Shown here: piece by piece, positions 48,801 through 57,800 of the stretch
Position numbering within the stretch: the first letter of the stretch is position 1
Layout of the letters: each line of letters begins with the position of its first letter
NCBI GenBank assembly: GCA_030248215.1
Contig: JASANG010002365.1
Coordinates: 248,001-312,000, forward strand
DNA length: 64,000 nt
Direction: 5' to 3'
Source: Enoplolaimus lenunculus
Taxonomy: Eukaryota
Notes under the pieces: model-generated
The model's database searches: none
What the model was told of the DNA's origin: nothing
What the model saw: only the letters and a program-made list of their open reading frames with translations
Position numbers and translations under genes: made by a program

Positions 48801-51800
48801 TGAAATGGCCGATTTGACGAGTGGGAGATTGCGCCGTACTGGAACTCACTCGCCGCGCTAGTGAAATACAAGTAACAACAATCACATATTATTCTCAACG
48901 GTTGGTATCATATCTAAATAAATGCATAGGCTGTGAACACTCTAGTCGGGTGCCATTTAAACTGTGGCACGTAAAATCAATAACACCGACTCGCAGTCCG
49001 TGTGACGTGATTATATTAAAGTTAAACTCAACCTTACCTTGCCTTCCTAATGTCGAGTCGATAAACTGAATCGTTGTTATCCATTCAGGTCTGCCGGTAC
49101 TGCCACCACGCGATGGTTGCTCACTACCGTCTTCGCTGTTGAAACTCGAGCTGTGCGATAACGCAAGACTACTGGATTCTTTCTCTACAAGCACAACAAC
49201 AAAACTTTACACGTTTGCCGCCCATACTGCGTGTGCTAAACAAAAAGAATGAGCAATTGAAAACTAAAGTTGAACTCAACTGAAATTTCAATATATAAAT
49301 CCAAAAATTTTGGTTAAAATTTTTTTACTTCTGTCTCAGCTACGATAAATATAGGCATCGCTTCTCTCGAATGAAAGCATCATTGAAGACCCGCTGTACC
49401 AACTTACCGCGATTTAGCAGTTGTACATAACGCGAAACTACGAAACGTTAAAGGTACACCTCAACACTAAACTTCTAACTCGATGGAAAACTCTTATGAC
49501 CCATTTTAATGCTATAAACTGGTAGCTTGAAATACGCTTTACTGGGCCAGAAATCACACAGCTCACTGACATTTTCTACATATCTCAGATTTTTGAAGTT
49601 ATGACAAAATTAAACTAAAGTTCATTTTCAAGTAACCCCAGACCAAACGCAACAATTCCAATAAACATCACAATATAAATTAACTGCAAGCAGAGCATCG
49701 CATCGTACACTTTGAATGCTTACAACTTTAATGTGTGGTCTTCAGGAATATTTGGTCCAAACCCGGGTATTTTGTGCATTTTGCTACACGCTATGTAAAT
49801 AAATAACACCAGTTTGCACTTAAATATTTGAAAATATTAGCCAGTTATACAAGCAAACTAGGTTCATCCGTACAAAATACACTTTTGCTTCGGTAACACC
49901 AAGAGTGGATAATATCTATTAAACAAGAGCGTGCAACTGGACACATTCTGTGTAGAAAAGAATGTACTCGGCACGCGTTGCGTTTTTGGCCTACCCACCT
50001 TACTTGGGAGGTGAAAATTTTTCGCAAACATTATATATATGTTGCATTCCCACATGTTCATACATTTCCATTTGTATTCTTAAATGGTCAACCAATAAGT
50101 GTGAATTAAAGCTGAAATCGATCCCCCCTCGACAAGCAGTGGGGTAAGGCGAAAACGCAACGCGTGCTGGTACATTGTGTACCATGCACCGCTCAGCTAG
50201 TTGCACACTATCGTTTAAGATCATCCACTCCTGGTAAACTAATTATCGTTCTGGTTCGATAGAATTTTCACCGAAATTTAGAATATTTTCGGAAAATGTT
50301 CAAAAATCCACATTATTCTACGACTCCATTTTACATCATTGGTATATACAATAATTGTCGAATTTTTCACTACTGTTTAGACGTTTTAGATAGACCGACC
50401 ACTACGCTATAAATAACACTGTTCCCAAGATAACGTTAACTATATTTTCCGATCAGTAATAATAGTAATAATAATAATACTAAAAATAATAAAAATAATA
50501 ATAATAATAATAATTGTTTTATAAAAGCACGCAATAATTTGCTATTTTTCACTTTGCTAACCTTGCACTGATCGACAGTTATCAGCAGTTCCATTGCCTG
50601 ATAAAGTACGGTGCAACGGCGTATGGCTGTTTTGCGTCGAAGAAATGGTGTTATTTGGATCGCTGGAGCACTCCTAAACTGGCGAATAAATATTAATAGC
50701 AAGCAAAGGTCTACACAGAACAGTATCATTAACACTGTTAACAATCTCTTAAATTGAAAACATATTTTAACAATAGTCAAGTGGCTTACATACCTTGTTC
50801 GCACGATTAACATAAAGCCTAAAATTGCACAAAATATAACGAAACTTCAGCTTATTTTGATCTGTTGCTCTCGTTTTTTTCATTAATGGTATTTAATGCT
50901 TTATGGTGAAAGTTTACTATAAAATACAGAAATTGGAAGGTCTGAAAAACGCACACAGCCAATAATGCTTCTTAATATCGAATAGTGTATAGCTTCCGTT
51001 TTGAAACGTGCCGCTTGCGTTCAATACATTACACGTTATCAACAACGTTAATAATGTACATGCCGTGTGCTTATGGCATTTTATTGGGTTAAACCGTGTG
51101 TTTTCACCACTTTTGTCTTAACAAAAACCTCAGCGAAATTACAAAAACCCACCAGAAACCCCAATCAAACCTTCCAAATGTTTATCACAGACAATTTATT
51201 TTACTGAATACTGAAACTTAAATCAAATTTAAACTCTGACAAAATATAACATTTTTGCTACATTTGTTGTATTGCGAGCTGGGAGGCTTTTATCATCGCC
51301 ACTTTGCTATAAAAGCTTGACGCTACTTTCCGATGGCTCTTATATCTGCTTAGATTTTGTGTTGCACAAGATATGTACGTTTAATAATAATTATTGTCAG
51401 TTTGATCGTACGCAGTTTGTAAATAGTGGCTCAGCGCATAATGTACCCTATGCGGAAAAGGGTCTTACGTTAAAACATTCATTTCATAATTTGAGCGTAA
51501 GTCCTGACCCTACCGGAAAGTTGCCAAAATGTTTTCAGCCGGTCGGATGGGTATAATTAGCCCAGTCACAAACAAAACCACTAATTACAAAAAACCATTT
51601 CAATTGCTAAAGCACCAACAAATTGAAATTTAGATTAACAATCATTTCGGCTTTTAATAACTAAAAATTGAGTAGAAAAGTAAATTTTCAAATTATCTTG
51701 TTCACATTATTGTCATTTGTATACACAAAGCAGTTTAAAACACACAAGCGTGTTATTGTTTACAAATTTGCAAGCAACAATAAACGCAATCAGCAAGAAA

Positions 51801-54800: not shown

Positions 54801-57800
54801 TCTCCTGAGCGATGATAGTCCTGTCTCGTATCGACATCTGACAATTTAGATTTAACCGAACACAACAATTCATTAGACTAAAAAAGAGAACAAAAACACA
54901 ATTTAGTTTTTGACGTATCGATAAACTACACAATGCTCTACAAACAGCAAAACACAAAAACAAACATGCGACCCCAAATCGTCGAGTACGAAACAGAACA
55001 TTATCGTCTGTGTTAAATGTTAACCCAAAATCTGCAAAATAGTTCCGAACTGATACGGTGCCACGATCCTTATTGTCAGGTCCAAAACTGATACTGAGAC
55101 TAAGCGCAACAATTACTGCCATAGTTGCTTTTGTTTGTGTTAAGTATACAAATTAAACAACAAAAAGCGTGCAAAAAGACATCCCATAATCAGCAAAATA
55201 ATAAAGATACACAAATATACAAATAAAAATAAGAAAATTGGCATTCATGCAAAAAAATATCATTTTCTAAACTATTAAGATCACGAATCTGAACGGCACA
55301 GCGCAATTGCAAAATATAAACTAATCGGTTAGAAAACTAACTACGATTGCAATAAAGCGTTTACCTCTATGGGACCGCCAGCGGTCGACTGAGATGCTGC
55401 TGTTGGTGAAGACAACGTTCCATCAGTGACTGCAGTTCCTGTAGAATCGCCTGAATGTTGTGCTTTAGAAAACGAAGCTCGACGCGAACGCGTTGCACAC
55501 CCAGCTGTTGGATTTGCATCGATGCATCCTGAAACCACCGATTTCGCAAATGCAGAAAAAACTATGTAATATTGATTAATTATTGGCAAAGTAAATAACG
55601 AAACAAAAACTTAACTAATATATGACCCATGTAAAGATCAGGGGCGGAACGTTTTTTGTGGGACTGCAATAGAATAAGCTTAAGCTTCAGACTAATTTTT
55701 TTGCTTGGCTTAGGCTTATGAATAAACTCATTATTACGCTTACGCTTAGGCTTAAGCTCAGCCTTATGCTTAGGAATAAGCTTAAAATATTGTTCCGGCC
55801 CTGTTCTCTACATTGGCCTGATAAATTAATAAAGAAACAAAATTATCAATACACCGCGCTGAAACTTTTTGTAAACCAATCAGTAACTTGTACCAGAGTC
55901 AAATTATGTTTTTATATATGGGTGTACGTGTACCATTAAACTGGAACAATAAAAATATTATTAATAGAGTGGAAAGACTCACCGTGAATATCCGTAAACG
56001 TCATTGTTATCACGCAAACATGTTGAACAATGTCCACCACGGCAAATCCTTTATACGTTCCAAACGCCAATCTGAAATAAGCGAACAAAAGTTTGCATTT
56101 TAGGCTATTATCTTCACAGTCACCAATTTCTCCGCTTATTTAAGCTCAAATAAAGTAGCTTAAACTTTAGCGTTCTAAAACCACAGGTCGTGCTACTCTG
56201 GAGCAGTTATATATTTAGAAATACTTTTTAACTTTCGTTATGAACTTTATAATGTAAACAATTGCGATCGTGTGAATTGCCAACAGCAAAACACAGGTTC
56301 GTTGTTAACCTTAAAAATAGCACTTCATTAAACTTTGAACATCCGACGTTCAGTAACGGCGCCATCTACAATCAACTCAAACCAACTCGTCTTTTCATTA
56401 CTTACAATCCATAGCTGCTATTCAAGACTAAAGCAGTAACGACTTCGCCAGCTGTTCGAATGTTTTGCGCTGGCGTGTTTTCTAGCGTCGAGTTTGAAAA
56501 TGCATGACTGGTGCTCAACGTTGGCAGCAAACATACTAACTCGGGTTGATACCCAGGCAGTTTCTTTTGTGGACCACCTTTCACTTTTAATAGATATGTA
56601 TAATCCTAAAAATAGATCAATAAAAATGCCTAACAACAATATTATATTGCGACCGCATTAATTAAGCATAAGAACTTCGCAATTAAAAACCATCTCTTTA
56701 CATTTTCTTAAGTTAGAATAAACCTACATTTTCTCTTTTTACCGCAACTGAACACAATTATCCACATTCTTTCCAGAAACGCAAAAAGTGCCTCCAAAGC
56801 ATCCCACTAAGAAAGAGTTACAGCGCCAATATGATCAACGCGCTGAACAAATTTGGTATATGCTCGGAAAGTAAGACTTAACTAACAATACGTATACAGT
56901 CATTGCTGGTCCCAAAATCTCCGGTTCTCACAAGTAGCAAATTTTTCCGCACGGTCCCGTAGTGCAGTTACACTACCATGCTGGGAAATGGTGATTTATT
57001 GCCAGCCCTCCCTACCAAGTTTGCAACTGAATTCTACAAAAGAATACTGATGAATGAACATTGTTATAACTGAAAATTCTACAGTCTTTGAGCCACTAAA
57101 TATTTCAACCGAAGACTAATTTCCATACTTATCTTACTTTTTCTCCGCCTTCAGACGTAGCCACACTACTTGTATCGCCGTCACCACCAACTGCTTTTCC
57201 AGCTGCAGCTACATTGCCACAGCTATTGCTGCTTTCAGCCGAATCATACAATTCTGGCTTCGAGCTGGTTCGTTTCAACTTCAACAGAGCATTGTTGTCA
57301 TTCGTTGGGTGAATATCCTTTGAAGCATCTTGTTCCTTGTGAACAGAGTCAGCTTCAGGTACAGCGAGCCTACTTTGCGTGTATTCCATGGGTGTTGCGA
57401 TAGCTTGGTGTATAGGATCCGCAAGCGATTCAATCGGTGTTTCTATCACCTACAAACCACTGCTACAACCGTTACATACTATTTTTACCACGCATGTGTA
57501 ATATCGTACACACAAAAAACAACCGTTAACTATTAAGAGAAATGATGCTTATCACGGTTGAACAGCATTTGTTAACTGCAATTTCACAGAATATCTATTT
57601 TGTAGTTCGTCTCAGAAAATAAGGACCTAGCCATTGAGGGGGTCGCAACACAAGAGCCCCTTTCGAAATAATTATAGAACGTACCCCGTCTTTTTAATAC
57701 CCTGGTCCATGTAAGACACCACGTATTTAACCTCAATGTTGGTGAAATCCTACAGCTAATAAAACCAAACATTAAAATTCGTAAGCCTTACTGTAACAGT

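Follow-up and report, generated by a model that had tools for sequence, protein, structure and literature searches.

A giant exon and a small exon as a probable mutually exclusive pair in the variable loop of Enoplolaimus lenunculus tomosyn

Tomosyn acts as a brake on vesicle release and sets the readiness of vesicle fusion. In tom-1, the tomosyn gene of C. elegans, exons 13A (490 nt) and 13B (124 nt) are mutually exclusive and both are 3n+1 in length (PMC3627589); the large exon comes first, the exons are non-homologous, and the pair was verified by reverse transcription PCR (RT-PCR) and is partially dependent on nonsense-mediated decay (NMD) (PMC4165533 Table 1). Here we analyzed the tomosyn gene in a stretch of 64,000 nt from Enoplolaimus lenunculus (contig JASANG010002365.1, positions 248,001 to 312,000), referred to below as the window, in which an earlier note had proposed that a giant exon (2,056 nt) and a small exon (112 nt) exclude each other. 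The best reading of the data is indeed that these exons are spliced as a mutually exclusive pair in the variable loop of tomosyn, that the large exon has been expanded, and that the switch was probably inherited together with the tom-1 and insect pairs; we give this reading a probability of about 0.7.

The following statements, like those above, draw on passages of the cited papers. The tom-1 exons are separated by an intron of 1,371 nt (PMC4165533) and are labelled 14a and 14b in WS239 (PMC4165533, PMC3627589). UNC-75 acts in neurons (PMC3627589), and in unc-75 mutants exon 13A rises by 35.9 percent-spliced-in (PSI) points (PMC3627589 Table 1). The tom-1 gene has microexons elsewhere, and 60 of the 63 C. 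elegans mutually exclusive exons are shorter than 260 nt, the largest listed being 546 nt (PMC4165533). Drosophila tomosyn carries mutually exclusive variants of exon 13 (13A and 13B), which lie in a loop projecting from the WD40 core, and the earlier note had named this exon pair; both fly isoforms rescue release, and 13A is the stronger on overexpression (bioRxiv 2021.08.03.454984, PMC8612732). The hypervariable region of vertebrate tomosyn-1 and -2 is spliced into s, m, b, and xb isoforms, and in mammalian tomosyn-1 PKA and SUMO sites fall within the variable region that is spliced (PMC3188574, PMC5529015). The same note had tentatively regarded the large form as arthropod-restricted, which the verified 490-nt/124-nt pair of tom-1 contradicts; large tomosyn forms are not limited to arthropods.

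The gene and the four exons on which the argument turns are as follows.

42804..63492, minus strand: tomosyn gene (STXBP5/tom-1 orthologue) with 25 modelled exons, identified by a phase-consistent model, alignment to insect proteins, a Pfam LLGL match, and a synaptobrevin-like last exon.
55365..55528, minus strand: upstream constitutive exon, entered in phase 1 and left in phase 0, as given by the frame chain through 14 exons upstream.
52822..54877, minus strand: putative giant alternative exon of 2,056 nt (3n+1), phase 0 to 1, with 685 codons predicted to encode a mostly disordered segment; based on the open reading frame (ORF), splice-site scores, and a codon model.
50562..50673, minus strand: putative small alternative exon of 112 nt (3n+1), phase 0 to 1, with 37 codons; the top exon candidate of any phase in 52821-49185 (17.6 bits).
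49038..49184, minus strand: downstream constitutive exon, entered in phase 1, whose start is the codon at which insect large and small segments rejoin.

The modelled exons run from 63492 down to a stop at 42804, and the 5' part of the gene, outside the model, probably lies largely beyond the window end. Protein lengths below are therefore counted from the first modelled exon in the window, about 135 N-terminal residues lying upstream of it. The predicted protein is 36% identical to an insect tomosyn over 1,164 columns. It contains an Lgl/Sro7-type WD40 scaffold (Pfam LLGL, 31.1 bits, above the cut-off) and a C-terminal R-SNARE-like motif without a membrane anchor; the match of the last exon to Synaptobrevin (PF00957), at E 6e-4, falls short of the curated cut-off, and this exon aligns with the end of frog and insect tomosyns. 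The constitutive exons measure 64-312 nt (median 138), and all 23 of their acceptors end in TAG or CAG. Two candidate exons, 61868-61836 and 57033-56898, were dropped from the model as unneeded or without an open frame.

The frame chain agreed with the phases previously assigned to the flanking exons, namely phase 0 at 55365 and phase 1 at 49184, and both alternative exons proved to be 3n+1 in length and open in frame. The model with only the small exon gives a protein of 1,142 aa and that with only the giant exon one of 1,790 aa, both reaching the tomosyn C-terminus. With both exons together a stop follows residue 1,377, and with neither exon a stop follows residue 720. In this respect the two adjacent exons match the tom-1 13A/13B pair, each one restoring the frame. 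At the sequence level the finding is real: the window holds intact, frame-equivalent, exon-like segments.

The giant ORF is clearly coding-like. Its exon is bounded by a T-rich TAG acceptor (7.0 bits) and a GTAAGT donor (7.6 bits), mid-range scores for the tomosyn gene that lie inside the spread seen for constitutive exons (23 acceptors, 22 donors). The open frame and the exon share their start: the TAG of the acceptor is itself the in-frame stop preceding the ORF. Given 0.065 stops per codon in introns, 685 open codons have a probability of about 1e-20, and the longest open stretch in 1,000 shuffles was 222 codons. GC content at third codon positions (0.374) and the first-position purine fraction (0.604) match those of the constitutive exons (0.377 and 0.601). 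A codon model trained on the tomosyn gene gave +101 bits in frame 0 and negative scores in the other two frames; a test restricted to synonymous codons was slightly negative and uninformative. The earlier note had described a 37-aa loop replaced by a Ser-rich loop of about 685 aa. The sizes stand, but the enrichment in serine is mild (14.5% vs 12.0% elsewhere in the gene). As a separate observation, internal donor and acceptor pairs of equal phase (53298 with 53222 or 53051; window 53051-53298, minus strand) could excise in-frame pieces of the giant exon.

The codon signal extends upstream of the first methionine, which bears on a rival reading: that the giant ORF belongs to a separate gene on the same strand, nested or trans-spliced, or is what remains of a mobile element. 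No Met occurs until codon 83; the preceding 82 codons are open (P 0.004-0.08) and give a positive score of 0.135 bits per codon, compared with 0.277 in the middle and 0.245 in the last half. Both ends of the exon fit the phases of the host gene, and no transposon or viral domain was found in Pfam. That the searches found no homologue, and so no sequence tie to tomosyn, is compatible with this reading; on balance we consider this explanation highly improbable.

At the other end, the frame does not close at the donor but continues a short way:

52763..52821, minus strand: read-through of the giant frame beyond its donor, 19 codons to TGA, with a weak coding signal (0.055 bits per codon).

This extension would allow the giant ORF to be an alternative last exon ending at the stop at 52763, so that the shortened tomosyn would lack the SNARE motif and the last part of the second propeller. 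AATAAA signals at 51200 and 51085 and the 977-codon ORF that probably ends a neighbouring gene could be cited in its favor. However, the coding signal falls beyond the donor, no AATAAA lies within 460 nt of the stop, and a read-through of 19 codons is ordinary, since the constitutive exons read through by 1-51 codons and by at least 30 codons in 6 of 22 cases. Moreover, a consensus GTAAGT donor lies near the end of the ORF in the sole phase that rejoins the gene. An alternative last exon is therefore very unlikely.

The small exon is likely real. It has the phases required by the flanking exons, and its combined score including codon content (17.6 bits) lies within the 9.0-53.0 bits of true exons in a leave-one-out comparison. 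A pseudo-exon scored above it in only 1 of 24 introns, and that one was located in a 48-nt tandem repeat. Its GC content is 0.45-0.50 vs 0.25-0.35 on the immediate flanks. Similarity between the small and giant exons was within the range of shuffled sequences (reached by 248 of 1,000 for protein and 165 of 300 for DNA).

The claim that exactly one exon is required held in part. Inclusion of both or neither leads to an early stop, but the rule applies only to the proposed splice sites, and other donors, a possible microexon, and a GAG acceptor would also keep the frame; the frame argument is weaker than had been claimed because of these sites. The acceptor, at 49182, would permit skipping of both exons; it scores 0.1 bits, and GAG is used by none of the 23 constitutive acceptors. 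Internal phase-1 donors (e.g. 53965) could yield shorter large forms. The microexon is the following feature.

50790..50818, minus strand: possible microexon of 25 or 29 nt with strong site scores, predicted 116 nt upstream of the small exon.

These sites would also permit additive forms, in which every transcript includes the small exon and the giant ORF is added to it, either as an in-frame cassette of 1,029 or 594 nt ending at a phase-0 donor or in full together with the 29-nt microexon. Use of the phase-0 donors at 53849 and 54284 gives a 3n cassette compatible with the small exon, and the microexon (50818-50790, phase 1 to 0, sites of 8.4 and 5.3 bits) would allow the whole giant exon and the small exon in one frame. 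Several donors appear to be in use for the insect large exons, and the loop isoforms of frog differ by simple insertions. However, past 53849 the frame runs on without a stop for 342 codons and keeps a coding-like signal of 0.245 bits per codon (P about 1e-7 to 1e-10), which a short cassette leaves unexplained; large and small segments occurred together in none of 44 insect isoforms, and the C. elegans pair is exclusive. Additive splicing is thus an unlikely account of the locus, and the exclusive pair remains the favored one.

The insect comparison was based on a search with the conserved exons at E<=10, which yielded 20 members of the tomosyn family (18 insect or insect-like, one frog, and one leech fragment) and no nematode protein; cluster look-ups added isoforms. 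Both anchors of the loop were present in 44 of 60 stored proteins, the 16 dropped being fragments, the frog and leech proteins, and one unrelated protein. Of the 44 anchored insect proteins, 31 carried a large segment, 8 one small segment, and 5 another small segment, with none carrying both or neither. The large segments measure 189-287 aa, the longest including add-on segments. Large and small segments start at a common left edge, and the residue at which they rejoin is either D or N; this alternation points to a phase-1 junction at the same codon as in the window. At the right junction the downstream exon of the window aligns with the insect proteins in ungapped register (7 of 13 residues identical), and the left junction is only approximately aligned. 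In a low-confidence fold of an insect small isoform (mean predicted local distance difference test score, pLDDT, 45.9), the segment lies in an unstructured stretch (657-761) between strands. Two further features were seen in Lepidopteran models (P0006, P0012, and P0058-P0060, from moth and butterfly), namely a second small segment of about 20 aa at the same position, which suggests a three-way exclusive cluster, and several add-on segments ahead of the downstream exon.

The earlier note left the origin of the switch between an ancient ecdysozoan event and convergence. The ancient switch is the likelier of the two because the worm has a verified pair and insect segments end at the same codon, and if the pair is exclusive, common descent is quite probable. 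An exclusive pair that arose independently of the worm and insect pairs, a rival that concerns origin only and overlaps in mechanism with the favored explanation, would follow from a loop that tolerates insertions and from flanking phases that force a length of 3n+1. It is in keeping with the absence of sequence similarity to the insect segments, with common phases that follow automatically from common flanking introns, and with the second small exon of Lepidoptera, so that new exons do arise at this site. On the other hand, the large-versus-small design is also present in C. elegans and insects, in the same order and with a small exon of 112 vs 124 nt in C. elegans, and frog isoforms show additive insertions instead. 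Independent origin is therefore rather doubtful.

We also analyzed the peptide encoded by the giant exon. No homologue was found at E<=0.001 among 7,974 candidates of 1,200-3,425 aa, and no Pfam family matched at the cut-off. The single weak match among 1.84 billion representatives, to a repeat protein over 50 residues, was rejected as chance, the best Atlas score was 0.82 (lead level only), and a query with an 88-aa exon gave no match. A single-sequence fold had a mean pLDDT of 39.3, with 631 of 685 residues below 50; this fits disorder, although alignment-free folds give the same result, and the loop is probably mostly unstructured. RQLS (at 353) and RLQSAP (at 570) resemble a pair of insect motifs and keep their order (the pair was found in 0 of 3,000 shuffles), but homology was rejected because the pattern was picked post hoc and an unbiased block test failed. 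The motif hydrophobic-x-R-x-x-S/T, of the basophilic kinase type and, as we take it, a CaMK/AMPK/MARK-type consensus, occurs 7 times against 1.8 expected. This count was reached by 0 of 500 full shuffles and by 2 of 500 local ones, and two control proteins had no such enrichment, although the motif was one of four tried and was selected after the result was seen, which counts with the points gathered below. The excess points to selection acting on the peptide sequence and to regulation by phosphorylation.

Several further results weigh against the exclusive and inherited pair. The splice sites of the small exon are weak (2.2 and 4.2 bits; its donor is GTTAGC), and pseudo-exons of four further introns reach 15.9-17.3 bits compared with its 17.6, while the phase-0 donors at 53849 and 54284 (8.8 and 8.6 bits) outscore the proposed giant donor (7.6). 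The best match of the small exon to its insect counterparts was not significant (reached by 133 of 1,000 shuffles). The giant exon scored -4.6 bits against a profile of insect large exons, a value reached by 374 of 469 reported shuffles, and four conserved blocks of the insect large segments were not significantly present in it (reached by 98-789 of 1,000 shuffles). The insect isoforms come from database models of roughly a dozen related species, in which frame-shifted forms would go unlisted, and so are not independent proof of exclusivity. We infer that the C. elegans pair lies in the same loop, nematode tomosyn sequence being absent from the search returns; the passages of PMC1514790, bioRxiv 2022.06.16.496459, and bioRxiv 2026.09.14.751627 do not give the location of the worm exons. 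Finally, no significant enrichment of the UNC-75/CELF motif (G/U)UGUUGUG was found in the introns flanking the small exon, where 2 of the 4 motifs in 15.2 kb of introns are located (52507 and 49199; P 0.23), one of them within the pyrimidine tract of the downstream acceptor.

Two intron elements could contribute to the control of the pair.

52482..52495, minus strand: 14-nt intron element, complementary to 50534-50547; a candidate for loop-out pairing around the small exon, lead only.
50534..50547, minus strand: partner element, 15-28 nt past the donor of the small exon; lead only.

The first element lies 326 nt beyond the giant donor and is a perfect complement of positions +15 to +28 past the small donor. 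It is the longest such complement among 20 donors tested (6-11 nt in the others), and a match of 14 nt was reached by 1 of 316 intron 40-mers, a set that includes the element itself. The duplex is treated as a lead only because its energy is ordinary and the gene has several further inverted repeats of 13-15 nt; no competing partner of the docker/selector type was found for it. The intron downstream of the small exon also contains a perfect, GC-rich inverted repeat of 16 bp that closes a hairpin of about 200 nt (49971-50167, minus strand) and is unique in the window. The hairpin has an energy of -73 kcal/mol (z -5.5), the z value being inflated since the stretch was chosen around the repeat, and may represent either a small mobile element or a sequence that acts in splicing.

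Under the favored reading, the phase-0 donor at 55365 would join either 54877 or 50673, and the chosen exon would then join 49184. Products with both exons or neither would be cleared at least partly by NMD, as in tom-1. If the parallel with C. elegans holds, the small form would be the neuronal one: a neuronal factor of the CELF/UNC-75 type would favor the small exon in neurons and leave the giant form to other cells or stages. Inclusion of the giant exon would insert a mostly disordered loop of 685 aa between propeller strands, with the WD40 scaffold and the R-SNARE left intact. Such a loop would serve as a platform for phosphorylation and docking, tuning the site and strength of the vesicle-fusion brake rather than acting as an off-switch. 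A fuller scenario, in which the switch has been conserved since the nematode-arthropod ancestor, the large exon grew into a 2-kb disordered platform rich in kinase sites, and the intron duplex aids exclusivity by looping the small exon out and crowding its donor, is tentative and, taken as a whole, unlikely.

Other features of the window were as follows. A WD40-region exon of tomosyn contains a run of ten glutamine residues (61521-61550, minus strand). Three tandem arrays were found, with units of 48 nt (11 copies, 43460-43987), 37 nt (14.8 copies, 40208-40754), and 27 nt (12.4 copies, 51932-52268), the last in the intron separating the giant and small exons. An open frame of 977 codons runs from an AG acceptor (33629-36562, plus strand; no Pfam match, coding-like score of 0.334 bits per codon) and sits downstream of two-pore K+ (K2P) channel exons (23688-28746); it is probably the giant last exon of the channel gene and a second multi-kilobase exon in the window. 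The nearest clusters of a K2P channel exon are from arthropods and nematodes. The window also contains a diverged beta-catenin gene of the canonical type (5136-7939, plus strand), an exon of which scored higher against vertebrate beta-catenin (98 bits) than against HMP-2 of C. elegans (48 bits), and a gene with an oxidoreductase-like domain (PF09791; 15899-16363, minus strand).

Both fly isoforms rescue release and differ in strength on overexpression, and a natural exchange of 37 for 685 residues would be an extreme test case for the function of the spliced loop. If true, a switch between non-homologous exons that is conserved across phyla and controlled by structure would be rare. The basic arrangement has already been described, and the gain is therefore incremental. 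A full-text search, which took in few subscription journals, turned up no publication that connects the worm pair with the insect pair or reports a giant exon in tomosyn.

The exclusive large/small arrangement is already known from roundworms and flies, and size is the main novelty here. As in C. elegans tom-1, the large exon precedes the small one, both are 3n+1, and the two are mutually non-homologous. The small exons are of similar size (112 nt here vs 124 nt), the intervening intron is 2,148 nt compared with 1,371 nt, and the large exon is 4.2-fold longer (2,056 vs 490 nt), giving a large form of 685 aa compared with about 163 aa. Exclusivity and UNC-75 control have been demonstrated in tom-1, whereas here we infer them. 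In the insects sampled, the segments rejoin at a codon and predicted phase matching the window tomosyn, but their large segments carry conserved motifs, none of which is significantly present in the giant exon. In vertebrate tomosyn-1 and -2 the same general loop is alternatively spliced, and the frog isoforms show additive insertions of 30-66 aa rather than an either/or swap, with no giant form in the sample. The giant exons of ankyrins offer a parallel outside this family, in which a multi-kilobase internal exon adds a long disordered region to a scaffold protein; those exons are larger, neuron-specific, and of the cassette type, whereas the giant tomosyn form is predicted to be non-neuronal and to belong to an exclusive pair. 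The large option is two to four times larger than the large forms of worm and insects, and the giant exon lies far beyond the lengths listed for mutually exclusive exons in C. elegans.

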